A stretch of 64,000 nucleotides of DNA, taken from Candidatus Poribacteria bacterium. Its GTDB lineage: Bacteria > Poribacteria > WGA-4E > WGA-3G. A model generated the notes under the pieces. That model was not told where the DNA came from. It did no database searches and saw nothing but the letters and a program-made list of their open reading frames with translations. Shown here one piece after another: positions 6,150-61,217 of this stretch (the first letter of the stretch is position 1; every line of letters begins with the position of its first letter). Position numbers and translations under genes: made by a program. The DNA lies in the NCBI GenBank assembly GCA_965198235.1, contig OZ240248.1, positions 192,001 through 256,000 of the forward strand, read 5' to 3'.

Positions 6150-6220
6150 TGCCCGGTCGTCTAATGGTAGGACGCGTGACTCTGGATTACGTAGTGAAGG
6201 TTCGAGTCCTTCCCGGGCAG
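6150..6220 (+). tRNA. tRNA-Gln(CTG); CCA not encoded
   Basis: Cloverleaf; anticodon arm CGTGA-CTCTGGA-TTACG; T-loop GGTTCGAGTCC. Confidence 0.92.
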
Positions 6221-6241
6221 TTCTCTCTATTATGTCAATAT

Positions 6242-6313
6242 GCCGCTATCGTCTAGGGGTTAGGACGGATGGTTCTCAGCCATCAAACCGGGGTTCGAAT
6301 CCCCGTAGCGGTA
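6242..6313 (+). tRNA. tRNA-Glu(CTC); CCA not encoded
   Basis: Anticodon arm GATGG-TTCTCAG-CCATC; T-loop GGTTCGAATCC. Confidence 0.92.
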
Positions 6314-38268: not shown

Positions 38269-38855
38269 TTTGCTTTGATTTTTCCCCACACTGTGGTGAT
38301 CAACTGCGGTTGCGGCATAACAGACAACGTCGTAAATGCTGGATTGAACCAAGACGGTGTAACGCTTAAACCACGACGTGTCAGTTGTTTTTTCCGTCGA
38401 GTCTGCAAATCAATTGTGACAATTTGACGATCCCTTTCTACGGCTTCCTCCACATACACCAGCTTTTCACCATCCGGGGACCACGCCGGATGAAAGATAC
38501 CCAGCACAGGTTTACCAATTTGTTTCAATCCGCTGCCATCGCGATTTGCGACATAAATTGCGTCCCTATCTCCCAGACCCCATTTTAACCAAGAAAATGC
38601 AAGTTTTGTACCATCCGGGGACCACGCCGGACCATACATCCACGGCTGCTGATTCGGCAGAAACGCCCGTTCTCTCCGAGAACGGAGCTCCACAATGTAT
38701 ATACGACGACTTCCCTCGCCAGCAACGAAAGCGATCTCTTCTCCGTTGGGGGACCACGATGGATTACCACCCTGCACCTCCGCCAAAGCTACCTGAACGC
38801 CACCGATACCCTGTATCGTCCCGGTCTGGATGCTCCATTGCGGCATTTCTGCATG
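38265..38855 (-). pseudogene. 5'-truncated TolB-like PD40 propeller protein with TTVWG tail
   Basis: PSWSPNG/PAWSPDG repeats; frame begins at the IS right end; no signal peptide. Confidence 0.75.
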
Positions 38856-39000
38856 GTGATAGACCCAAGCCTAAAGACTTGGGCTTCTGCAATCATTAAG
38901 CAGAAGCATTTGTGGAATTCAGAATCGGATGGTTCGATTCAACGGAGGTGCCTACGATTTTGTTAAACAAAACAATAGGTCTTACAACTCCTAACCCAAA
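38856..39000 (-). ncRNA. Predicted omegaRNA scaffold of TnpB copy 1; guide = flank CATGCAGAAATGCCGC...
   Basis: Established TnpB biology; 3' region conserved between the two copies; 5' boundary approximate. Confidence 0.55.
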
Positions 39001-40107
39001 GGAAGCTACCCCTTCCTTAAGAATGTTCATAGCAGCGTTCTCGTCGCGGTCGAGGTGTGTCTCACACTTTGGACACGTCCAGTCTCTATCTGATAGCGTG
39101 AGGTTTTGATTTTTATGTCCACAAACAGAACAGCACTTTGTGGTCGGCGACCACCGATTGATTTTCAGCACAGAGCGGATACGCTTTTTGCTCTGGTGTT
39201 TCAGCTTCTGCAGAAACTCACCGAAGGCGAGGTCAGATACCTGTTGACCCCAAAGTTTTTTCATACCGCGAAGGTTGAGGTCTTCAAAGAACAGGATATC
39301 AAACTGCCGACACAACTTTATAGCAAGTTTATAGTGGTGGTCTGTCCTTTGATTCGCCGTTTTCTTATGGATACGGGCAACGTTCTTACGTTCTCGTTCG
39401 AGATTCTGAGAACCTTTGACTTTATGGGAATATACCTTTTGTGCTTCCGCCAACTTTTCAGCGTTGAGTTTGTAGAACATTGGAGACGTATATCTATGAC
39501 CATCACTGCCAGTCAGGAAGTCTTTGATACCAAAATCAAACCCTTCAGCTTGACCCGTCTTGGGTTCAATTTTAATTTCGGTATAGTCTTCTGTCAGCGT
39601 AATATACATATCTCCGAGTGCGTCCCTCTTAACATGAAACTGTTTGATAGCACCTTGTATTTCACGGTGCAACGCGAAACGATACCAACGTCCATTCAGT
39701 CTTATCTTATAGGTCGGGTGGTTTCTTTCGTTCTTCTGCGCGTCAAGCACTTTCTCCAACGCAACTTGTTCACCAGAGAACGTCATCCCTTTGTGTTTCT
39801 TGCACTTCTTGAACTTCGGGTGACCTCTGCCAAGTGTTTTCATTTCTTTGAAACTCTGTGCCAAGCGTTTGAGCATATTCTGAAGACTCCACGCGTAAGG
39901 GATATTCCAATGTTGGTATTTCTCAAGCTTTTTCAGCCGCGTCAAATGTTTCGACATCTTGGAATACGACAAGTCCTTACCATACCGACGGTAATATCGC
40001 CGAGACAACGCATTGAAATGATTCCGAACAACGCCACAGATATTCAGGTCATCCTGGAGATGCTTCAAAGAGGTATCACGAAAAAGTTTATGTGTGGTGT
40101 TTCGCAT
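38896..40107 (-). CDS. tnpB: RNA-guided endonuclease TnpB
   Basis: RuvC GFDFG / FEDL / DRDENAA intact; Zn ribbon CSVC..CPKC. Confidence 0.92.
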   Translation of the reverse strand: MRNTTHKLFRDTSLKHLQDDLNICGVVRNHFNALSRRYYRRYGKDLSYSKMSKHLTRLKKLEKYQHWNIPYAWSLQNMLKRLAQSFKEMKTLGRGHPKFKKCKKHKGMTFSGEQVALEKVLDAQKNERNHPTYKIRLNGRWYRFALHREIQGAIKQFHVKRDALGDMYITLTEDYTEIKIEPKTGQAEGFDFGIKDFLTGSDGHRYTSPMFYKLNAEKLAEAQKVYSHKVKGSQNLERERKNVARIHKKTANQRTDHHYKLAIKLCRQFDILFFEDLNLRGMKKLWGQQVSDLAFGEFLQKLKHQSKKRIRSVLKINRWSPTTKCCSVCGHKNQNLTLSDRDWTCPKCETHLDRDENAAMNILKEGVASFGLGVVRPIVLFNKIVGTSVESNHPILNSTNASA

Positions 40108-40120
40108 GGTATCTCAAGTC

Positions 40121-40197
40121 TCAAGTTCTTAACCCCTGAACAGTGGGTAGGCAGACACGTAACCTTGCGATTACGCTGTTCATGTCTGCCAGCTTGA
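40121..40197 (-). ncRNA. Structured tnpB 5' leader (copy 1)
   Basis: P1 GGCAGACA/TGTCTGCC; P2 CGTAATC-GCAA-GGTTACG; bulge TGAACAG complementary to downstream CTGTTCA. Confidence 0.6.
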
Positions 40198-40204
40198 TAC
40201 TCTA

Positions 40205-40233
40205 ATTATACCACATTTTTCACCGAAAGTCAA
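40205..40233 (-). promoter_or_regulatory. tnpB promoter, copy 1
   Basis: TTGACT-N17-TATAAT on the minus strand. Confidence 0.75.
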
Positions 40234-40321
40234 GTCTTTTTTTAACAGAGACCCTCTGGTCTAATTCACAACGGCGAGACTGTATCCCAAACCTAAAGGA
40301 TTGGGTTTTAGTCTCGGAAGG

Positions 40322-40720
40322 TTAGATAAAAGGGAAGGGTTCGTCGCCGTACCGAACAGTGATGACGGTAAATTGACCCAACACATCCGTGTCACCGTTT
40401 TTGCCACGGTAGTTGTACATACCTTTTTCCTCGAAGAATTCAAGCGTGAGATTCTTCAGGTCAAGGGCATAAAGTGCAGCTTTGGTTTCCGCAATTTCTT
40501 CGCTGACATTACTTTCCTCAATCTCAAGGTTCAGGAACTTCCACTTCCCGAGGAGTGTATCGGTTATATTGGTTTTGAGTTTGAGTTCATTATGTTCCTC
40601 GCGGAGGTCCTCGTAATTCTTGAGCAGCTGATCTCGTTCTGCTTGCATCTTTTGATACTCGGTACTTGTACAGCCAGCGAACATCAGAACGCAGATACCA
40701 AAAATAATCCAAGTTTTCAT
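40322..40720 (-). pseudogene. Lipoprotein truncated at its 3' end by the IS
   Basis: Lipobox FAGC, coiled coil; stop codon lies inside the IS left end. Confidence 0.7.
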
Positions 40721-40830
40721 CGATGTTTCTCCTTGTTACAGGCATGGGCATGCTACAGCAGCATTATACCAGAGCAACCTGTAAACGGCAAATCCCAGAT
40801 CCAAATTGTGCATCGCTTCACCCCTTGCTG

Positions 40831-43245
40831 TCAAAATTCAAGCGTCAATCCGAAATAAACTATCCGAGGCAGTTGCGGTGCGTCAAAGACTTCACGTTCA
40901 ATGCCGACTTCCTGACCTTGAACGTCAAGGGTTGCCTCTTCAAAAATGAACCTTATCTTGTTTTTCCGGTTGTATACATTCAGAATATCAAGGAATCCAC
41001 CTGCCTTCAGTCCCCAAATGTTCCATTTATAACTCACCCGAAAGTCTAACTTATGATACGGTGCCAGTTCGGTGCTTAATTGTTCGTCAGCACTCGCCAA
41101 AAGCGGGTTCAATCCACGCGTTACGGGGTCTTGGATGAGAACGATCGAACTGATAGGGACTTCGGAGGTGCCGCTGAGATACTGCCACTTCGCGCCGATC
41201 TCAAAATTCGGTGTGAAGTTATAGTTAGCGACAATACTAACAATGTGCGTGTTATCGAAGAGGTAAGGTTGATAGGATCTTTTCGGGTTCTCGCGTCGTT
41301 CTGCGTGTGTATAAGCATAGGAAATCCAACCGAAGAACTTATCTGGAATCCGATGCCGTAAGAATACCTCCGCACCCCCGACGTACGCTGTCCCTTGATT
41401 GAGATAGTTCGAGACTTCATCGGGTGTTACCAACTTCTGTGCGTCCTTGTAATAGGTGGCAAGTTTGAGTTCGGTCCGCGATGAGAGTTCGTGTTCTAAT
41501 TCCATGATATAGTGCCGTGTGAGACTCGATTCCAATGCCCGGTTGCCGTTTTCCGACAGCAGATGAGACGGTTGTGGGCTCTGTTCATAATGTCCATACG
41601 CGAAGCGAAGATTGGAACCGTTCGGCAGTATGAAACTCACACTCCCGCGTGGCTGAATAGAGACCTGCTCCGTCACATTCAGATAGTCCAATCGAACGCC
41701 GAGTGCCACAGACAAGAACGAAAGCGGATCATATCGTCCTTGCACGTATCCTTCAGTCCGATAAAAATCGTGTCCGAATTCATCATGTATCTCCTCGAAA
41801 GAGGACTCTTCGACGACTTCACCGTCAGGTGTCTCTACCGTCCAATCTAAGTCGGGCTCTGCCTCAAAATTCTCCTCAATCCAGCCGTTTTCTGAGCTTT
41901 TCGCGGGATTGAAAGCGTAGAGAAAACCTGACTCCAATTGAAGCGTCGGATTTAACCTGTAGGAGACATCTTCGCGCAGCGTGTAGACTGGCGCATTAAT
42001 CTTTATTTCATAGTGGAAGTAGTTCGCTGCATAGCTTGACGGTTCCACCCTGCCCTCAACGATAGTGTATCTCTCGCCGGTGACAGCTTGGAGATCGATA
42101 TTGAGAAAATTATGAGAACGGGTCAAAGAGAGATGAGAGGTAAGATTTTCGGTGAAATTTGAGCGGAGATGAAGCCCTTGTCCATCGAACCCGTTTTTGA
42201 ACTGGACACTTGAGCGCGCAGCATCTTCATAGGGAATTTCTTCTATATCTTGTATTTCTTCGCCCTCTTCTACCAAGGTTGCCTCTTCCTCAATCTTAAA
42301 ATGGTCAGTTGCGGCGAAGGCGTTCACCGTGAGGTGATGTTTTTCAGTCAGCGCGTAGGTAGATTTTAGTTGATAGTCTGAAAAATAGGGTAACTGCTGT
42401 GCCGTTCCCGTTTGCTCCGCAATGATAGGTCCAGCGATGAGATCTAAGTAACTGCGCCGTCCAGAGGCGGAGATGTATCCCTTATCACCGATTTTGGTTT
42501 CGAGGAGTCCTTCAGAATAGAGGAGATTTAAATTGAATTTTCCGCTCCACGACTTTTCAATGTTGTCGCGTGCATATATGTCAAGCACGGCTTGCGAGTC
42601 CAGTCCGAATTCAGCACCATATCCACCCGCATAGATGTCAATTTTTTCAAGTGTTTCAGAACTGATTGTTGAAAGTAAACCGCCCCAATGGAAAGGGTAG
42701 CCGAGAGGCGTTCGATCGAGATAATAAAGGTTTGATCCGGGTTCACTCCCACGGATATAGAGAGCCCCGAAGTAGTCGTTTGGAATACCGATACTTGGAA
42801 GGGTCATGAGTCCTTTGAGTGTATCGTTGAAGGTGCCGGGGATGCGGAGGAGTTCACTGCCGAGAATTTCCGTGCGACTCACCGTCGGTGGGAGGCGTTT
42901 CCCTTCTACCACTACTGTTTCGAGCTTAAAAACCACCCCGAGGTGTATTTTGACTTCGGTGGTATCGCCGCTACTGATGTCCATCGACACTTTTGTGGGT
43001 GCCGTTTCCACAGGATGGGTTACGACGATGGTATATGTGCCTTCGGGTAGTTCTGTGAACTGAAAGCCCCCGTTTTCATCGGTCTTTTGGTGCTGGTCAG
43101 TTTCGAGGATACGAACATCAGCACCTACGAGGGATTTCCCTGTACTTCGCTGATAGACGGTTCCTTGAATATCACCGGTTTGGGCTATAACAGAGAGTGG
43201 CATGGTGATAAACACAAATAGAACTATAACGATTTGTGGCTTCAT
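40831..43245 (-). CDS. TonB-dependent receptor with CarboxypepD_reg-like N-domain
   Basis: Plug IRGS...GGYGAEFG; C-terminal NVYNRKN..PRIVYFGLTLEF. Confidence 0.88.
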   Translation of the reverse strand: MKPQIVIVLFVFITMPLSVIAQTGDIQGTVYQRSTGKSLVGADVRILETDQHQKTDENGGFQFTELPEGTYTIVVTHPVETAPTKVSMDISSGDTTEVKIHLGVVFKLETVVVEGKRLPPTVSRTEILGSELLRIPGTFNDTLKGLMTLPSIGIPNDYFGALYIRGSEPGSNLYYLDRTPLGYPFHWGGLLSTISSETLEKIDIYAGGYGAEFGLDSQAVLDIYARDNIEKSWSGKFNLNLLYSEGLLETKIGDKGYISASGRRSYLDLIAGPIIAEQTGTAQQLPYFSDYQLKSTYALTEKHHLTVNAFAATDHFKIEEEATLVEEGEEIQDIEEIPYEDAARSSVQFKNGFDGQGLHLRSNFTENLTSHLSLTRSHNFLNIDLQAVTGERYTIVEGRVEPSSYAANYFHYEIKINAPVYTLREDVSYRLNPTLQLESGFLYAFNPAKSSENGWIEENFEAEPDLDWTVETPDGEVVEESSFEEIHDEFGHDFYRTEGYVQGRYDPLSFLSVALGVRLDYLNVTEQVSIQPRGSVSFILPNGSNLRFAYGHYEQSPQPSHLLSENGNRALESSLTRHYIMELEHELSSRTELKLATYYKDAQKLVTPDEVSNYLNQGTAYVGGAEVFLRHRIPDKFFGWISYAYTHAERRENPKRSYQPYLFDNTHIVSIVANYNFTPNFEIGAKWQYLSGTSEVPISSIVLIQDPVTRGLNPLLASADEQLSTELAPYHKLDFRVSYKWNIWGLKAGGFLDILNVYNRKNKIRFIFEEATLDVQGQEVGIEREVFDAPQLPRIVYFGLTLEF

Positions 43246-43372
43246 TCAGTCGTTTTGACCTCCGATTCGGGCATTGACGTGACAATTCAACGTTCAATTA
43301 AGATTTTGGGTTTACTTAACATTAACGTGAGTTCGATGGAAGAAACGTAGTTTTGACATCAGCAAGGAAACA

Positions 43373-43419
43373 CCTTCTATTTATTAGATACAATCTAAAG
43401 AAAAAAAGGTTGCATAATT
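43373..43419 (-). promoter_or_regulatory. Copy of the shared ECF-type promoter motif, upstream of the TonB receptor
   Basis: Minus strand AATTATGCAACC...GATTGTATCTAATAAATAGAAGG. Confidence 0.55.
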
Positions 43420-43543
43420 TTTCAGAGAGTCGTCTGAATGTTGGCTGTCAGCCGTCAGCGGTCAGGAGAATAGCGGTATTGCGAGTAGGTGGGGTTACAA
43501 ACCCCGCCAGCGGAGAGGTAGACAAATCCAGTACAGTACGCAG

Positions 43544-43582
43544 AAAAACCAAGCGCATGGCAAACACACGCTTGGCTTTTTT
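43544..43582. terminator. Bidirectional terminator
   Basis: AAAAACCAAGCG...CGCTTGGCTTTTTT. Confidence 0.55.
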
Positions 43583-43633
43583 AAATAAACTGTAGTTTTG
43601 TTTCGCTGATAGGGTTCTAACCTTGCCCAGGTC

Positions 43634-44647
43634 CTATTCCTGATGCAACGTGACCGACCGACGCGGTGGGCTAAATTCCTGTTCTGTCAACGGCACTACC
43701 ATATTCCGATACACCTGAACCCGATAGGACCCAAAGTCTGGCACGAACATCAATCCCTCATCACTGACTGCGACAGATTTCGGTGAACGCAGGTATTTCT
43801 GCGGCTCCAGGTCCGCCATATCGCGCATCCGATTTGGGCTGGCGTTTGTCATCATGTAAGCCAGGGACACCTTTGACAAGGTGGCATCGCCGAGGAATTT
43901 CTGCACATATTGCCCTTCGGCGTTGAAGAGTTGAATGCGGTCATTGCCTCGGTCGGCGACATAGATATCGCCGTGCAGGTCAACATCAATCCCGGCGGGA
44001 CGGTTGAGCTCACCATTGCCACTACCGGATTTGCCGAATGCAAAGAGGAATTCTCCAGCGGCGTTGAATTTCTGTACCCTATCGTTTCGCCAATCGGAAA
44101 CATAGACATCGCCGAGTTCGTCTACAGCGACTCCCCAGGGCATGTTAAATTCACCTTCACCGTCGCCATAACCTCCCCATTGCATGAGGAACTTACCATC
44201 TTTCGTGAACTTCTGCACGCGATGCCCCAAGCTGTCAGCGACGTAGAGATTCCCCTCCGGATCGAAGGCGATACCCGCGGGTCCGTTGAGTTGCCCCGGA
44301 TCGGTGCCGTGTTCACCCCACGTACCGATATGTTCACCTTCACTGTTAAAGGCGACGATCCGATGCAGATATTCATCGGATACATAAAGATTTTCTTCGC
44401 TGTCAGGGGTAATCGTCACGGGCCACGTGAATTGACCGTCACCCTGTCCGTAACCACCCAGCGTGCCGAGGTCTTCGTCCTCAACGGTATATTTCCGAAT
44501 CATCGCCGTGCCGTCACTACGGCACATGATATACAAACGTCCCTCTTTTCCGATTGCGATGTCAACCGGAAAGTTGGTCGTTCGCCGCATGCTCAGGGTC
44601 TTGTGAAATGGAAACCCGGCACGCAGCAAGCCGTAAGGTCTACCCAT
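43634..44647 (-). CDS. NHL repeat (6-bladed propeller) protein
   Basis: Repeated GQL/FNxPxGIAxD..G.xYVxD..N.RVQ. Confidence 0.88.
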   Translation of the reverse strand: MGRPYGLLRAGFPFHKTLSMRRTTNFPVDIAIGKEGRLYIMCRSDGTAMIRKYTVEDEDLGTLGGYGQGDGQFTWPVTITPDSEENLYVSDEYLHRIVAFNSEGEHIGTWGEHGTDPGQLNGPAGIAFDPEGNLYVADSLGHRVQKFTKDGKFLMQWGGYGDGEGEFNMPWGVAVDELGDVYVSDWRNDRVQKFNAAGEFLFAFGKSGSGNGELNRPAGIDVDLHGDIYVADRGNDRIQLFNAEGQYVQKFLGDATLSKVSLAYMMTNASPNRMRDMADLEPQKYLRSPKSVAVSDEGLMFVPDFGSYRVQVYRNMVVPLTEQEFSPPRRSVTLHQE

Positions 44648-44702
44648 GATAGCCTCCTACCGTTATTCTTAAGTCATTTAATAGCAAGTTTCAGTTTGCA
44701 AA

Positions 44703-45845
44703 CTACACTGAAAAGGGGTGAAGCTGTTCAAAATTCCCACCGACAATGTGGGTCGGATCTACACCCATCCACTGCTCTAAAAGCGTTCCGTATATGCCCC
44801 GGAAGTCGATGGTATGCTCAAGGTCTTCGCCGTGTACCCAACGGGACGGATCGAGAGACGGATATTCGGCGTAGAGTCCGCCTTTCACATGGTCACCGAT
44901 GATGAACGCACCGCCGCCGGTACCATGGTCAGTGCCGCTGGCGTTATCTCGGATACGTCTGCCGAATTCTGTGAAGACGTACATGACGATCTCTTCCGAG
45001 GCGTTCTGCGACCGTAGATCGGCGAAGAATGCTTGGATAGCTTCCGTGAGTTCTGTCAGAAGTCGTGGGTGTGTCGGGACCTCGTTGGCATGGTTATCGT
45101 AACCGCCGTGCTGCGTGTAAAAAACGCGTGTGCCGAGATCGGCGAGGTGGACCCGTGCGACATCCCGTAGGCTCTTTGCGATCGAGTTTTGTGGGTATTC
45201 CACTTCAGACGTATACATCGCCGGTGCCTTTTTGAGTTCATCAGCACCTTTGATCACGTCTAACCCGGTTTGGCTGAGGTAGTCCATCACGATACCGGTG
45301 CCAACCGTGCCACCGTACATCCCTTTGAATATCTCAAGTGCTTTTGTCCGTTGCCCCTCATCACCAATGCTGGTCATCAATCCGTAGTTATCCAAATCGC
45401 CAACAGAAGTGACGGGAATGCCGGAGAGTGCACAGGCGCGCGGGAGACCCTGTCCGAAACTGACACCTGTTAAGACGTTGCGGCTCTGTGGATCGAGTTC
45501 TCGGACGAGCCTGCCGACCCAACCTTCATCACCGATTTTCAGGGGTTCACAGGTATGCCAGATGTCCATTGCCCGGAAATGTGAGCGGTTTGAGTCCGGG
45601 TATCCGATTCCCTGCACAACAGCGACATCACCGGCGTCAAACATCTCTTTTAAGGGAGCAGCTTGCGGGTGCCAGCCCAAATGGTCGTCTACCTCTGCCG
45701 GTAGCACGTCTTCCGCTTTGATGCCGACAACCGGACGGGAATCGTGATAAATCCCGCTTGTGTACGGAATGAGTGTATTCATGAAGTCGTTGCCGCCGCT
45801 GAGTTGTACAACGACGAGGACCGGGGCTTTCTTAGTCGTACTCAT
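44703..45845 (-). CDS. DUF1501 domain protein
   Basis: LVVVQLSGGND, NRSHFR, TEFGRR..NASGTDHG. Confidence 0.88.
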   Translation of the reverse strand: MSTTKKAPVLVVVQLSGGNDFMNTLIPYTSGIYHDSRPVVGIKAEDVLPAEVDDHLGWHPQAAPLKEMFDAGDVAVVQGIGYPDSNRSHFRAMDIWHTCEPLKIGDEGWVGRLVRELDPQSRNVLTGVSFGQGLPRACALSGIPVTSVGDLDNYGLMTSIGDEGQRTKALEIFKGMYGGTVGTGIVMDYLSQTGLDVIKGADELKKAPAMYTSEVEYPQNSIAKSLRDVARVHLADLGTRVFYTQHGGYDNHANEVPTHPRLLTELTEAIQAFFADLRSQNASEEIVMYVFTEFGRRIRDNASGTDHGTGGGAFIIGDHVKGGLYAEYPSLDPSRWVHGEDLEHTIDFRGIYGTLLEQWMGVDPTHIVGGNFEQLHPFSV

Positions 45846-45897
45846 GTCGATGTCTCCTATATTTGAAGCCGCGATCACGGGACCGGGCTACAAAAGG

Positions 45898-47283
45898 TTA
45901 GCCAAGTTGATACTCTCTTGAAGCCACGATTAATTGGAGCATACTGACGACTCGCTCTTGGTTTTCCTCCGCAGCGTCATCATCTCCAAGGTTGAGTTCA
46001 CCGTTCGCTTCCGCAAATTGGGTGAGATACTCACGAGTGGTGTCGCCTATTGTCAGCGGTCCGGTGAGTTCAAGACATCTCTCCACAAACGCTTCCGGCG
46101 AGAGTGAACCCCCGTTATTTTTCAAACGTGTGATGAGATCCTGAATTCCGGGTTTCGATGCGTCGCTGACTTCACTAACGGCGAAGTTGACGCGAGCGGT
46201 AAGCAAACCCCCATCGATCCACTCTTTACCGGTGTGCCACCCTTCTACGGTAGGTGGATCCATGAGCTTCTGTCCCATCAATTGCGTAGCACCTGCATAT
46301 TGCCCCATTCCGGGTTGCGGACCTTGGAAGGTGCCTACCAGTTTCAGAATCCCCATGACGAGTTCCGTCGGACTCTTGACCTTCTTGAATTGGGCTTCCT
46401 TGAAGAAGTCGGAATTGAAAAGGACGTTGAGGACGTGGGATATATTCCCGTTAGACGCCATGAATGCGCCCGCGAGGGTCTCAACCGCTTCCGGATCCTG
46501 AGGTGGCGTCACGTTCCACGACGGGACCTGTGGCTCATCTGCGACAAAGAAGTTATAGAGGTGTCTGGAGATAAATCTGGCACAAGCGGGTTGTTCGACG
46601 ATGATGTCGATGATGTCATCACCATTGAGATTTCCGGTGTGCCCCAAGAAAGTTTTCTCCCCGTGGTCGTGTTCCTCTTCAACGAACAGGAAGGGGGCCG
46701 AGTAGTAACCGTGGGGATACAACGGAATCGGCTGCCCGAATGTCCAGCCTGTGAAGGCGCGAGCGCAACTCTTGATGTCATCTTCACTGTAGTTGCCCAC
46801 TCCCAATGAGAAAAGCTCAAGGAGTTCTCTCCCGTAGTTCTCGTTGGGTTCGCCTTTGCGATTTTCATTATTGTCGAGCCAGAAGATCATCGCCGGATCT
46901 TTGGAGAGTTCGAGTAGAGTGTCTCGTATCTGTCCCATACCGAGGCATCGAAGCATATCAATCTGGTTCGAGGATGCAAGGATATGCTGATTCTTACCTA
47001 ACCCCGTTGCAAAGACATGATGCCAGAAGAGTGCCATCTTCTCTTGAAGTGGACATCTGCTGTTCAACATCCGATAGATCCAAATACTGACATAAGCACC
47101 TTCACCGCCGAAGTAGCGTTCTAAAATGTCTTCATCAATGGGGGTCCCGCGTTCAGGATGGACGAGATCCTCAACGACATTCTCGTAGCCCTTTTCGACG
47201 TAGGCTTCCAGCTCGGTGCGGGTTGTTCCAAACCCTGCGCGGCGCATGAGGTGCGCCATTAACGCAACATCGTTCTGTGACAT
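45898..47283 (-). CDS. DUF1800 domain protein
   Basis: HLMRRAGFG, EKMALFWH, NENYGRELLELFSLG. Confidence 0.88.
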   Translation of the reverse strand: MSQNDVALMAHLMRRAGFGTTRTELEAYVEKGYENVVEDLVHPERGTPIDEDILERYFGGEGAYVSIWIYRMLNSRCPLQEKMALFWHHVFATGLGKNQHILASSNQIDMLRCLGMGQIRDTLLELSKDPAMIFWLDNNENRKGEPNENYGRELLELFSLGVGNYSEDDIKSCARAFTGWTFGQPIPLYPHGYYSAPFLFVEEEHDHGEKTFLGHTGNLNGDDIIDIIVEQPACARFISRHLYNFFVADEPQVPSWNVTPPQDPEAVETLAGAFMASNGNISHVLNVLFNSDFFKEAQFKKVKSPTELVMGILKLVGTFQGPQPGMGQYAGATQLMGQKLMDPPTVEGWHTGKEWIDGGLLTARVNFAVSEVSDASKPGIQDLITRLKNNGGSLSPEAFVERCLELTGPLTIGDTTREYLTQFAEANGELNLGDDDAAEENQERVVSMLQLIVASREYQLG

Positions 47284-47635
47284 GTTCACCTCCGATACGT
47301 TTACCGTGAGGGGATCCCTCACGTGAGTAACTTTCGATGGAATACCGTTCTGAACTTTCGGTTTCATCAAATTGGGAGAAACCGCTATAAGATTGCCTAT
47401 ATCTTATAATTAAAGTCAAAAAAATGTCAAGTTTTTTGTTTTTTGTCCAATCGCACTGGAATATCCAAACCGCCTCACCCACCGCTGGCGAGGTTTCCCA
47501 ACCTCGCCTCTTCTTTCTCACCCAATGGTCCGCGCACCACCCTCTTCTGTAGGAGGGATCTCCGAATCCCGACGCTTGCTAACCGCCGATCGCTACCCTC
47601 ATTGGATTAAAAATCACATTTTTTACATTTTTTTC

Positions 47636-47684
47636 AAATTATGCACAGTTTTTCTCCGAAAATTGTGTCTTTAATTATAGAAGG
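47636..47684 (+). promoter_or_regulatory. Shared ECF-type promoter motif
   Basis: AATTATGCACAG...AATTGTGTCTTTAATTATAGAAGG. Confidence 0.6.
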
Positions 47685-47785
47685 TGTGACGTACACGATA
47701 GAATTTAAGACACTTGCAATCCTGCGATGCTCGGACGGAATGGAGGTGATAGACCCAAGCCTAAAGACTTGGGCTTCTGCAAATA

Positions 47786-48997
47786 TTAAACAGAAGCATT
47801 TGTGGAATTGAGAAGCGGACTACACGCTTCAACGGAGGTGCCGACAATCCTGTTGAACAAAACAATCGGTCTTACGACTCCTAACCCAAAGGAAGCTACC
47901 CCTTCCTTAAGAATGTTCATAGCAGCGTTCTGGTCGCGGTCAAGGTGTGTTCCACAACTTGGGCATGTCCAGTGACGATCTGATAGCGTTAAGTCTTTAT
48001 TATGAGAGTTACAAACAGAACACGCTTTTGTAGTGGGCGACCACCGATGAATCTTCAGCACAGAACGGATACGCTTTTTGCTCTGGTGTTTGAGTTTCTG
48101 CATGAATTCACCAAAAGCAAGGTCAGAAACTTGTTTACCCCACAAGCGTTTCATACCCGAAAGGTTCAGGTCTTCAAAGAACAGGATGTCAAACTTCCGA
48201 CAGAGTTTTATCGCAAGTTTCCAGTGGTGGTCTGTTCGCTGGTTTGCTGTTTTCTTGTGGATACGGGCAACGTTCTTACGCGCTCGTTCCTGATTGTTAG
48301 AACCTTTGACTTTACGGGAATATACCTTTTGTGCTTCCGCCAACTTTTCAGCGTTGTGTTTGTAGAACATCGGAGATATTTCTCGGTGTCCGTCACTGGT
48401 AGTCAGGAAGTCTCTAATACCAAAATCAAACCCTTCAGCTTGACCCGTCTTGGGTTCATATTTGACTTCGCTATAGTCTTCAGTGAGCGTGATGTAAACA
48501 TCTCCGAGTGCGTCTCGTGTAACCTGAACTTCAATGATTTCGCCTTCTATCGGACGGTGCAGGGCGAAACGATACCAACGCCCATTCAATCGGATTTTAT
48601 ACGTCGGGTGATTTCTCTCGTGCTTCTGTTTCTCACAGACCTTTTCAATCTTCACCTGTTCACCGCGAAACGTCATCCCTTTGTGTTTCTGACAGGACTT
48701 GAATTTCGGGTGACCTCTACCTAATGTTTTTATTTCGCGAAAACTTTGTGCCAGACGCTTGAGAACATTTTGCAACGCCCATGAGTAGGGAATATTCCAA
48801 TGCTGGTATTTTTCAAGACGCTTAAGTTTCGTCAAATGCTTACACATTTTCGCAAAAGAAAGTCCCTTACCATACCTACGATAATATCGCATGCAGAGCG
48901 CAAGGAAGTGATTTTTGATAACGCCACAGATATTGCAGTCGTCCTGCAGGTGACGCAACGTCTTATCCTTGAAAAGTTTGTGTTTTGTGTTTCGCAT
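47786..48997 (-). CDS. tnpB: RNA-guided endonuclease TnpB
   Basis: Close paralog of copy 1; catalytic D/E/D intact. Confidence 0.92.
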   Translation of the reverse strand: MRNTKHKLFKDKTLRHLQDDCNICGVIKNHFLALCMRYYRRYGKGLSFAKMCKHLTKLKRLEKYQHWNIPYSWALQNVLKRLAQSFREIKTLGRGHPKFKSCQKHKGMTFRGEQVKIEKVCEKQKHERNHPTYKIRLNGRWYRFALHRPIEGEIIEVQVTRDALGDVYITLTEDYSEVKYEPKTGQAEGFDFGIRDFLTTSDGHREISPMFYKHNAEKLAEAQKVYSRKVKGSNNQERARKNVARIHKKTANQRTDHHWKLAIKLCRKFDILFFEDLNLSGMKRLWGKQVSDLAFGEFMQKLKHQSKKRIRSVLKIHRWSPTTKACSVCNSHNKDLTLSDRHWTCPSCGTHLDRDQNAAMNILKEGVASFGLGVVRPIVLFNRIVGTSVEACSPLLNSTNASV

Positions 48998-49007
48998 TGT
49001 TTTTCCT

Positions 49008-49086
49008 TAGCATCGTTCCCAATGTTACTTGGTTCGGTAGAGACCGCGCCTTGCGGCGCGGGTAACATTCTCTACCAACAATGCTA
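49008..49086 (-). ncRNA. Structured tnpB 5' leader (copy 2)
   Basis: P0 TAGCATTGTT/AACGATGCTA; P1 GGTAGAGA/TCTCTACC; P2 CCGCGCC-GCAA-GGCGCGG; bulge ATGTTAC complementary to GTAACAT. Confidence 0.6.
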
Positions 49087-49091
49087 CTTTA

Positions 49092-49121
49092 AGTATAATA
49101 CTTTTTTTAGACAGATGTCAA
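49092..49121 (-). promoter_or_regulatory. tnpB promoter, copy 2
   Basis: TTGACA-N18-TATACT on the minus strand. Confidence 0.7.
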
Positions 49122-49218
49122 GTCTTTTTTCAATATAGACCTATGGTCTAATTCACAAGGGCGGGCATTCATCCCAACGCTAAAGCATTGGGCTTTCTGC
49201 CCGTAAACGTGGTAAACC

Positions 49219-60773: not shown

Positions 60774-60822
60774 TTGTCTGAATCGCGGATTGACACGGAT
60801 TTCGTAGATTTCGCGGATTAAA

Positions 60823-60964
60823 TGACTTCGCTATAGTCTTCAGTGAGAGTGATATAAATGTCTCCAAGTGCGTCTCTGGTAACGTGAACTTGATTCATAG
60901 CACCTTGTATCTCACGGTGCAAGGCAAAACGATACCAATGTCCATTCAAACGGATTTTATACGT
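60823..60964 (-). pseudogene. Internal tnpB fragment (~140 bp)
   Basis: TYKIRLNGHWYRFALHREIQG...RDALGDIYITLTEDYSEV matches both TnpB copies. Confidence 0.85.
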
Positions 60965-61217
60965 TTGGACGTTTCCACAGCGTTGTTCAATTAATTTCCT
61001 CACCCGGGGTCCCCACCCGTTACTCGGAAGGAGGACGGGGTGATATTGCTTCGCAGTGAGAATAGAGACGGTGTATTCAAGCAACTGCCAGCCGAAGAAA
61101 ATGCTATGTCTATAAATAGGTGGCAACTTGCGTAATAATAATAGAAGTAGAGTTTCACCATGTTACGAGGAATGTTCAAGACGACTCAACCTATTCATTA
61201 AATCATGGAGAATCCTG

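Follow-up and report, generated by a model that had tools for sequence, protein, structure and literature searches.

A covarying three-way-junction leader with a pseudoknot-type contact and a tandem start-codon partner on poribacterial tnpB elements

Introduction

TnpB, the ancestor of Cas12, is a compact genome editor and has been studied almost wholly through the omegaRNA, which comes from the tnpB 3′ end and the right end of the element and takes its guide from the flank. The present analysis concerns the other end of the tnpB transcript in a stretch of DNA of 64,000 nucleotides (nt), termed the window, from a Candidatus Poribacteria bacterium (GenBank assembly GCA_965198235.1, contig OZ240248.1, positions 192,001–256,000). 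The minus strand of the window carries two tnpB-only insertion sequences (IS) of the IS200/IS605 type, at about positions 38856–40324 (copy 1) and 47746–49211 (copy 2). An earlier note, made from the sequence of the window, had proposed a covarying pseudoknot-like RNA in the 5′ leader of both tnpB genes.

Several described systems offer points of comparison. Alternative pairing controls start regions in IS10 fold-back inhibition, in the hok mRNA and in the leader of the MS2 maturation gene. In the purine riboswitch, the natural hammerheads and the pistol pseudoknot, arms are locked by a distal loop contact; small ribozymes have junctions locked by loop-bulge or pseudoknot contacts and are often found near mobile elements. 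The loops of the IS110 bridge RNA match target and donor DNA. RNA secondary structure in the 5′ untranslated region (UTR) of IS200 tnpA is reported to repress tnpA expression (PMC4513863), and this UTR is reported to be processed into regulatory small RNAs (PMC5435999).

The poribacterial leader is a nucleic-acid structure that is conserved, specific to one strand and tied to the start of tnpB; it combines a pseudoknot-type contact with a choice of two closing helices. Its unusual features are a kissing pair of free sequence between a bulge and a loop and, at the start codon, an alternative partner in tandem that covaries.

Structure of the leader in the two window copies

Coordinates are window positions and all features of this section are on the minus strand. 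The copy 1 promoter (40205–40233) reads TTGACT-17-TATAAT, with TG before the −10 box (extended −10) and 11 of 12 consensus matches, and is kept across copies. It ends 5 nt from the first helix, P0, and the predicted transcript start is at about 40198–40200. The P0 5′ strand (GTATCAAGCT, 40191–40200) lies at the predicted 5′ end of the transcript and covaries with two downstream repeats, R1 and R2. It is followed by helix P1 (5′ strand GGCAGACA, 40183–40190; 3′ strand TGTCTGCC, 40150–40157), which encloses a 7-nt bulge, TGAACAG (40176–40182), and the P2 hairpin of 7 base pairs (bp) with a GCAA loop (40158–40175). The bulge is the 5′ half of the kissing pseudoknot. The 3′ half, CTGTTCA (40137–40143), is preceded by the linker TACCCA and is contained in the 9-nt loop of the P3 hairpin (ACCC/GGGU, 40132–40149). 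R1 (AACTTGAGA, 40119–40127) is the first 3′ partner of the 5′ end and R2 (CTTGAGATAC, 40109–40118) is the second, tandem partner. R2 ends 1 nt from the ATG and overlies the stretch where a Shine-Dalgarno (SD) sequence would be.

In copy 2 the promoter (TTGACA-18-TATACT, 49092–49121) aligns with that of copy 1, and the leader spans 48994–49087 with the P0 5′ strand at 49077–49086. P1 pairs GGTAGAGA (49069–49076) with TCTCTACC (49036–49043), the bulge is ATGTTAC (49062–49068), P2 is CCGCGCC-GCAA-GGCGCGG (49044–49061) and the 3′ 7-mer, GTAACAT (49022–49028), comes after the linker GAACCAA. R1 (AACGATGC, 49010–49017) and R2 (AACAATGC, 48994–49001) are separated by 8 nt, with an SD sequence, AAGGA (49004–49008), between them, and R2 spans the AUG.

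The copy 1 and copy 2 leaders differ at two positions of P1, five of seven of P2 and all seven of the 7-mer pair, and pairing is intact throughout. On the sense strand both fold better than their shuffles (z = −3.25 for copy 1 and −6.59 for copy 2) and also better than the antisense strand.

Family-wide anatomy and covariation

The anatomy was counted on 113 distinct leaders, i.e. 116 distinct matches less the Chloroflexales match L086 (25 bits), L114:5341 (34 bits) and L090:1721 (44 bits, which has no 3′ half). The leader folds as a three-way junction of about 95–100 nt. P0 closes the junction, arm 1 is composed of P1, the 7-nt bulge and P2, and arm 2 is P3. The P0 5′ strand is the first 10–11 nt and has the form GUAUC, 3–5 variable nt, UU. 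P1 is GGCAGACA/UGUCUGCC in 102 leaders and the deviants are compensated. The bulge has the form NNNNNAG and the P3 loop has CUNNNNN. P2 is 7 bp long with a variable tetraloop, and P3 is a 4-bp stem, (A/U)CCC with GGG(U/A), that carries a 9-nt loop; UACCCA pairs with GGGGUU, and UCCCA with GGGGAU. The junction linkers are short: J0/1 is 0 nt, J1/3 is 1 nt and J3/0 is about 5 nt.

The bulge and the loop pair by seven of seven Watson-Crick pairs in 105 leaders, depart from this by G-U only in three and are mismatched in five. There are 47 distinct 7-mers, and 0.07% of cross pairs between a bulge and the loop of a different leader fit in full. One of the mismatched leaders precedes a tnpB that carries a stop codon.

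Among 13 copies of the source genome, 96.8% of the cells of the structural alignment are paired, versus 83.8% in shuffles and 26–42% when partners are slid; 14 pairs are changed on both sides, a number matched by 0 of 500 shuffles. P1 is paired in 100% of cells, with both sides changed in four of its eight pairs. Among 54 distinct leaders the figures are 95.6% versus 84.5% shuffled and 30–44% slid, with 23 double-changed pairs (again matched by 0 of 500 shuffles). In this set the 7-mer helix is 97% paired with six of seven pairs double-changed, and P3 is 97% paired. The earlier proposal of a covarying pseudoknot-type structure on the mRNA-sense strand is upheld. P2 has 86 G-U cells versus two A-C cells out of 791, which assigns the structure to the sense strand; the kissing pair has three G-U among 791 cells.

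P1 crosses the 7-mer helix and both covary, as two helices of a pseudoknot do. The 7-mer pairing may be a pseudoknot that coexists with P1, or it may be an alternative fold, as covariation is the same for both. The kissing codes have five free positions plus the fixed AG/CU, and 43 of the 44 perfect codes have one or two G/C. The kissing duplex (−6.2 ± 1.0 kcal/mol) is weaker and narrower in range than duplexes of random 7-mers (−8.0 ± 2.3 kcal/mol). This narrow strength fits a tertiary contact that needs moderate strength and neither extreme.

The stems, bulges, linkers and 7-mers that the earlier note listed are all present at the places it gave in both window copies, in each the bulge and the downstream 7-mer are exact reverse complements, and an outer stem does link the predicted transcript start with the region before the ATG. 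The downstream 7-mer stands as described, except that it is placed in the loop of a small hairpin, P3, which the note did not describe. The GCAA loop holds for both window copies but not as a family trait, since it occurs in 59 of the 113 leaders and others have GCUU, UCUC, etc.

A tandem partner at the start codon

The outer stem itself stood, but its 3′ partner was seen only in part by the earlier note, which missed that this partner is a tandem repeat, R1 and R2, e.g. CUUGAUA-CUUGAUA. Both repeats track the core of the 5′ strand through at least 10 variants (CAAG, CACG, CAGG, CACAG, CACAC, CGUG, CCAG, CUCG, CCG and CUUG). Among the 54 distinct leaders P0–R1 is 88% paired, with 8 of 11 pairs double-changed, and P0–R2 is 85% paired, with seven of eight pairs double-changed.

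Two or more separate sites of at least 6 bp are present in 89 of 110 leaders, versus 25% when 5′ strands are swapped between leaders. This count leaves out L160 and L126, which are cut off, and L151, which has a single repeat and would count one site. R2 ends 2–6 nt upstream of the start codon in 80 of the 89 two-site leaders. Folds were predicted for 108 leaders, i.e. the 116 matches minus L086, L114:5341, L090:1721 and five that are cut off or have an unclear start codon (L160, L126, L095, L115:6172 and L061:2850). The minimum-free-energy fold chose R1 in 73 and R2 in 32, and this split indicates that the two states are nearly equal in energy.

R2 is thus a leader segment that pairs over the SD/AUG region, as in sequestering leaders of the IS200/IS10 kind. 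The main-family leaders are without an SD sequence; the 16S anti-SD is canonical and the genome makes moderate use of SD sequences. No conserved upstream small open reading frame was found in the leaders by reading.

Variation of the 7-mers

The bulge window is the fifth most variable of the 1,319 seven-nt windows of the aligned element, with 3.63 differences per 7 nt versus a median of 1.31, and the promoter spacer alone exceeds it. At 6–10% coding divergence the variable 7-mer sites differ at about 0.49 per site, versus 0.17 at third codon positions, in 11 close pairs that are not independent of each other; 10 further leaders with less than 400 nt of downstream sequence were excluded. Identical codes reappear before unrelated TnpBs. 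Either leader segments are exchanged between copies, or the change is unusually fast.

Avoidance of shared codes within one genome showed no sign: the source genome has 9 same-code pairs versus 11.4 expected by random draws. Shared codes at chance frequency argue against selection for mutually exclusive codes. A third site for the 7-mer, as in a guide role, was also considered and rejected. All 26 copies of the source genome have the 7-mer at the bulge and 22 of them have its exact reverse complement at the loop, and the element and flanks of these copies gave only scattered single matches elsewhere (extras in seven copies). Likewise rejected was a tie between the constant GTATC of P0 and the target site or right end (TTATC/TATCAC), as GTATC is kept before elements that end in TTGAC or TATGAC.

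Distribution of the leader

A covariance model, built without the pseudoknot, finds 26 copies in the source genome and 26 of 26 are upstream of a tnpB or a tnpB remnant. The weakest true match is the copy 2 leader, at 65 bits. Thirteen of the 14 near tnpB copies carry the leader. The exception, L012 (G000:C1:4993640–4994845), is a full-length tnpB of 78% identity without promoter or leader, and its left-end hairpin is about 60 nt from the ATG.

Leaders also precede TnpBs that are only 30–44% identical to that of copy 1, in elements that end in TATCAC, TTGAC or TATGAC. The promoter and leader are thus a module common to several element lineages, which implies exchange between element families or very strong constraint. 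Examples are at G000:C1:644444, 2164662, 2881774, 79485 and 4726495 (L042, L043, L048, L050 and L051), and the omegaRNA-region sequences of these loci differ.

Matches are present in 68 of 101 genomes of relatives: 60 of 60 in the same genus, 7 of 17 in another genus of the order, and 0 of 11 and 0 of 7 in two other families. In an even draw across the phylum 93 of 151 genomes have matches, i.e. 86 of 99 in the same family, 6 of 26 in one other family and 0 of 25 in seven further families. Copy numbers per genome are lower bounds, with more than 1,000 matches in each of these two genome sets. A pattern scan of one genome per species gave at least 113 stretches, and the model confirmed 68 matches among the 80 listed. 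Among the matches listed, all that were confirmed are in Candidatus Poribacteria records except two, of which one is a record labelled "uncultured bacterium" and the other is the 25-bit Chloroflexales match, which is regarded as false. The leader is found on tnpB elements of sponge-associated Poribacteria, in hundreds to thousands of copies.

In several copies outside of the window a palindromic insert of 45–75 nt, with CGGAAAG...CTTTCCG ends, lies within the −35 region of the tnpB promoter (G000:C1 near 2106800, 2575400, 5121050 and 79620; L005/L039, L014/L035, L007/L046 and L050). Its inner end restores a TGACTT −35 box. The insert has the look of a small palindromic mobile element with the tnpB promoter as its target.

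Comparison with described RNA families

At the gathering threshold Rfam 15 (4227 models) shows only two transfer RNAs (tRNAs) in the window. Nothing overlaps the leaders at E-values up to 10 across both elements, and at E up to 1 a further 16 leader loci gave tRNAs and one weak match that overlaps a tRNA. No Rfam family matches the leader. The two tRNA genes are neighbors at 6150–6313 on the plus strand.

The earlier note also set the leader apart from the 3′ omegaRNA, and rightly, as the leader sits between the promoter and the tnpB ATG. This location speaks against the leader being an omegaRNA itself, as does the lack of any fixed position in the flanks that matches its 7-mers. It is not a subterminal hairpin bound by the Y1 transposase, since such hairpins are separate and the leader begins about 125 nt in from the left end, downstream of the promoter. 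Nor is it an IS110-type bridge RNA; its variable loops pair with each other and have no fixed third site in the element or flanks. Hammerhead, HDV-like, twister and pistol ribozymes gave no model match and their core motifs were absent by reading.

Motifs called "Poribacteria-1" and "IS605-orfB" are reportedly named in the supplements of one motif survey and in Rfam, and they could bear on novelty. As no Rfam model matches the leader, these motifs, if in the library, are other elements. A full-text literature search for "Poribacteria-1" returned no paper, and the main text of PMC5737381, as distinct from its supplements, has 0 occurrences of Poribacteria, IS605 or orfB. Among the papers listed in searches for Poribacteria combined with TnpB, none contained both. 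As far as checked, the leader was previously undescribed.

The tnpB elements of the window

Copy 1 (38856–40324, minus strand) has its left end adjoining TTATC (40325–40329) and its right end reads ...GGGTCTATCAC; these end sequences are common to 14 copies of the source genome. Copy 2 (47746–49211, minus strand) has its left end adjoining TTTAC (49212–49216). Each tnpB (38896–40107 in copy 1 and 47786–48997 in copy 2, both minus strand) encodes 403 amino acids and displays the Pfam OrfB_IS605 and Cas12f1-like TNB domains. The copy 1 TnpB matches the ISDra2 TnpB structures 8bf8/8ex9/8h1j (E = 2.4e-43).

Subterminal hairpins are present at both ends of each element. In copy 1 the left-end hairpin (40275–40316, minus strand; CGAGACT..CCCAA/TTGGG..AGTCTCG) lies apart from the leader and is a presumed Y1 transposase binding site, and a hairpin of the same type (CCCAA../..TTGGG) is at the right end at 38864–38883. 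The tnpB 3′ end and right end (38856–39090 in copy 1, minus strand, extent approximate) are the best-conserved part of the element and likely code for the omegaRNA, by analogy with its position in known TnpB systems. A hairpin in this presumed omegaRNA region (about 38905–38935 and 47795–47825) covaries between the copies, with GAATCG..CGATTC versus GAAGCG..CGCTTC. Its 7-nt loop differs between the window copies and, by reading, has no complementarity to the leader 7-mers.

The source genome has 42 TnpB matches, of which 14 are near copies at 78–100% identity. A tnpB remnant in the window (60806–60976, minus strand) has 72% identity to residues 128–184 of the copy 1 TnpB and contains one internal TAA. 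There are six matches to Y1 transposase genes in the genome. The sole clear tnpA-tnpB unit (G000:C1:118729–120191) has no leader match; the five other Y1 transposase matches could mobilise the tnpB-only copies in trans.

Metatranscriptome contigs from four runs of one study have depths of tens to hundreds over the element and of 0–9 over the flanks. These contigs show neither ends nor strand and the multi-copy family inflates depth, so that they give weak support to transcription of the leader and to mobility. Missing cover of the flanks and breaks of contigs within the leader were not counted as findings. One RNA-library contig (run X2, depth 5) connects 38854 to 40326 and omits 1471 nt. It looks like an empty site in some strain, but the exact ends are not derivable from it. 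A simple consensus scan found no promoter-like site opposite the leader, and no terminator-like site is present downstream of its structure. Antisense RNA and attenuation were set aside on these grounds.

Possible function of the leader

With moderate confidence, the leader is read as a cis-acting element that buries the 5′ end of the mRNA and gates the start of translation by alternative R1/R2 pairing, with the kissing contact as a lock. Transcription would begin within the left end of the element, at the near-consensus promoter, and the transcript is presumed to be the omegaRNA precursor as well. The first 10 or so nt would pair with a downstream repeat and close the three-way junction (P0), and the P3 loop would kiss the bulge by seven Watson-Crick pairs. 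The compact fold would bury the 5′ end and may protect it from 5′-end-dependent decay. Pairing of the 5′ end with R1 would leave the start region free, a state that the kissing contact may stabilise as a compact junction. Pairing with R2 would instead mask about 10 nt directly upstream of the AUG or, in window copy 2, the AUG itself. Which of the two repeats is paired would then set the level of TnpB translation from an abundant transcript.

Translational control is plausible on positional grounds, as R2 abuts or covers the start codon, and the leader probably limits the amount of nuclease made. We infer that RNA, and not single-stranded DNA (ssDNA), is the active form and that the transcript starts where predicted; an effect on translation or stability would follow from the fold, and a trigger would operate the switch. 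A strong promoter that would feed the omegaRNA while nuclease synthesis stays low fits a cis-acting leader.

Several points weigh against this reading. The role of the leader is deduced from sequence and position; the transcript start is predicted, and the RNA contigs in its support are blind to ends and strand and are inflated in depth. The sense strand is also the transposing top strand of IS200/IS605 elements, thus folding of ssDNA that tolerates G-T would be compatible with the strand bias. A static fold needs no R2, and no signal that would flip the switch can be named. With all seven bulge nt paired, a flush stack of P1 and P2 may be strained, and the 7-mer pairing could then be an alternative fold and not a lock. 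Finally P1 is near-invariant (102 of 113 leaders) even before TnpBs of 30–44% identity. Together with the junction, this points to a further partner with sequence specificity, which is most likely a host factor.

The leader might instead be cleaved off, or accumulate, as a stable small RNA that acts in trans, with the 7-mers as a lineage tag, bulge-to-loop dimers and sensing of copy number. This is unlikely. Bulge and loop complementarity does permit reciprocal pairing of two molecules in principle, but intramolecular pairing should beat it. The variable sites outpace third codon positions (about 0.49 versus 0.17, in the 11 non-independent pairs), yet shared codes are not avoided (9 same-code pairs versus 11.4 expected) and a third copy of the 7-mer is not found at a fixed place in the element or flanks. 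Contig depth in the leader bin is above that of adjacent coding bins in runs X2–X4, a weak hint as other copies can map there, and no terminator comes after the structure. The IS200 tnpA 5′ UTR, which is reported to be processed into regulatory RNAs (PMC5435999), is a precedent.

About as unlikely, or slightly more so, is a platform that binds a sequence-specific factor, which could be a host protein or, in autoregulation, TnpB itself; the main task of the fold would be to present P1 and the junction to this factor. Sequence, and not pairing alone, is conserved in P1, P3 and the junction across TnpBs of 30–44% identity. These TnpBs are too different for one common RNA site, which favors a host factor, but the candidate factor is only hypothetical. 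A platform is also compatible with the cis-acting translational leader and does not exclude it.

More doubtful again is a fold of the top strand as ssDNA, formed in the course of peel-and-paste transposition, that would act for the Y1 transposase or replication and not for the mRNA. IS200/IS605 elements are reported to move as ssDNA (PMC6006769), comparative methods are reported to be unable to separate ssDNA from RNA motifs (PMC5737381), and Y1 transposase genes exist in the genome (six matches). The kissing pair is near-purely Watson-Crick (three G-U in 791 cells), but the equivalent of G-T is frequent in P2 (86 of 791 cells). G-T pairing is weak in DNA. The structure spans the predicted transcript start to the start codon, and R2 follows the position of the start codon, which would be meaningless for DNA. 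Transposase-type hairpins are separate and near the ends (40275–40316 and 38864–38883), and one type of leader serves elements with the ends TATCAC, TTGAC and TATGAC.

It is quite improbable that the 5-nt code of bulge and loop, which is strictly Watson-Crick, tuned in stability and quick to change, is an identity tag by which same-code transcripts, or a transcript and the ssDNA of a same-code copy, recognise each other in trans by reciprocal kissing. Each element lineage would then sense and limit its own copy number or TnpB output, and a transposon family would have a self-recognition system based on RNA.

Least probable of all is that the leader trims the tnpB transcript as a new class of small self-cleaving ribozyme, the ribozyme being a role that the earlier note had offered: a junction locked by a bulge-loop contact does resemble small ribozymes, and the variable covarying pseudoknot recalls pistol, but there is no Rfam ribozyme match (E up to 10 for the two window copies and up to 1 for the 16 further loci), no conserved unpaired core among the junction nt (0, 1 and about 5 nt in J0/1, J1/3 and J3/0), no room for a scissile site opposite the internal loop, which is a one-sided bulge, and no hammerhead core by reading.

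The cis-acting leader would be a second well-supported RNA structure on the tnpB transcript, one that extends across TnpB lineages of 30–44% identity, and it suggests dedicated control of the amount of nuclease made from a transcript that also supplies the guide RNA. The tandem partner and the kissing contact of free sequence offer handles for mutation and compensation, and possibly for reuse as a tunable expression module. For RNA biology the leader provides a clear example of a bulge-loop pseudoknot, in 47 naturally occurring sequences.

Relation to known systems

The IS110 bridge RNA is likewise noncoding, arises from the 5′ end of an IS and carries internal loops whose sequences differ from element to element. 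In the poribacterial leader the two variable segments match each other and there is no fixed third site. With the purine riboswitch, the hammerhead and pistol the leader shares two side-by-side arms held by a distal Watson-Crick contact; it differs in that the contact is bulge-to-loop and of free sequence, without a ligand pocket, catalytic core or Rfam match. In IS10, hok and MS2, as in the leader, a 5′ segment pairs with the translation start region and competing pairings decide ribosome loading, but here the two rival partners are a tandem repeat that covaries with the 5′ end, and there is a separate kissing contact.

The TnpB omegaRNA/reRNA is also a structured RNA encoded by the element and comes from the same transcript. 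The leader, in contrast, is 1.2 kb upstream, and its variable 7-mers find their match only in one another. By analogy, the closest functional relative of the leader would be the IS200 tnpA 5′ UTR, which belongs to the same IS superfamily and is also a structured 5′ leader of an element gene. The poribacterial leader shares with it no sequence, Rfam relation or architecture, and no antisense promoter is predicted. Unlike the IS200 UTR it precedes tnpB, not tnpA, and its fold combines a three-way junction with a kissing pseudoknot and a 3′ partner that is duplicated.

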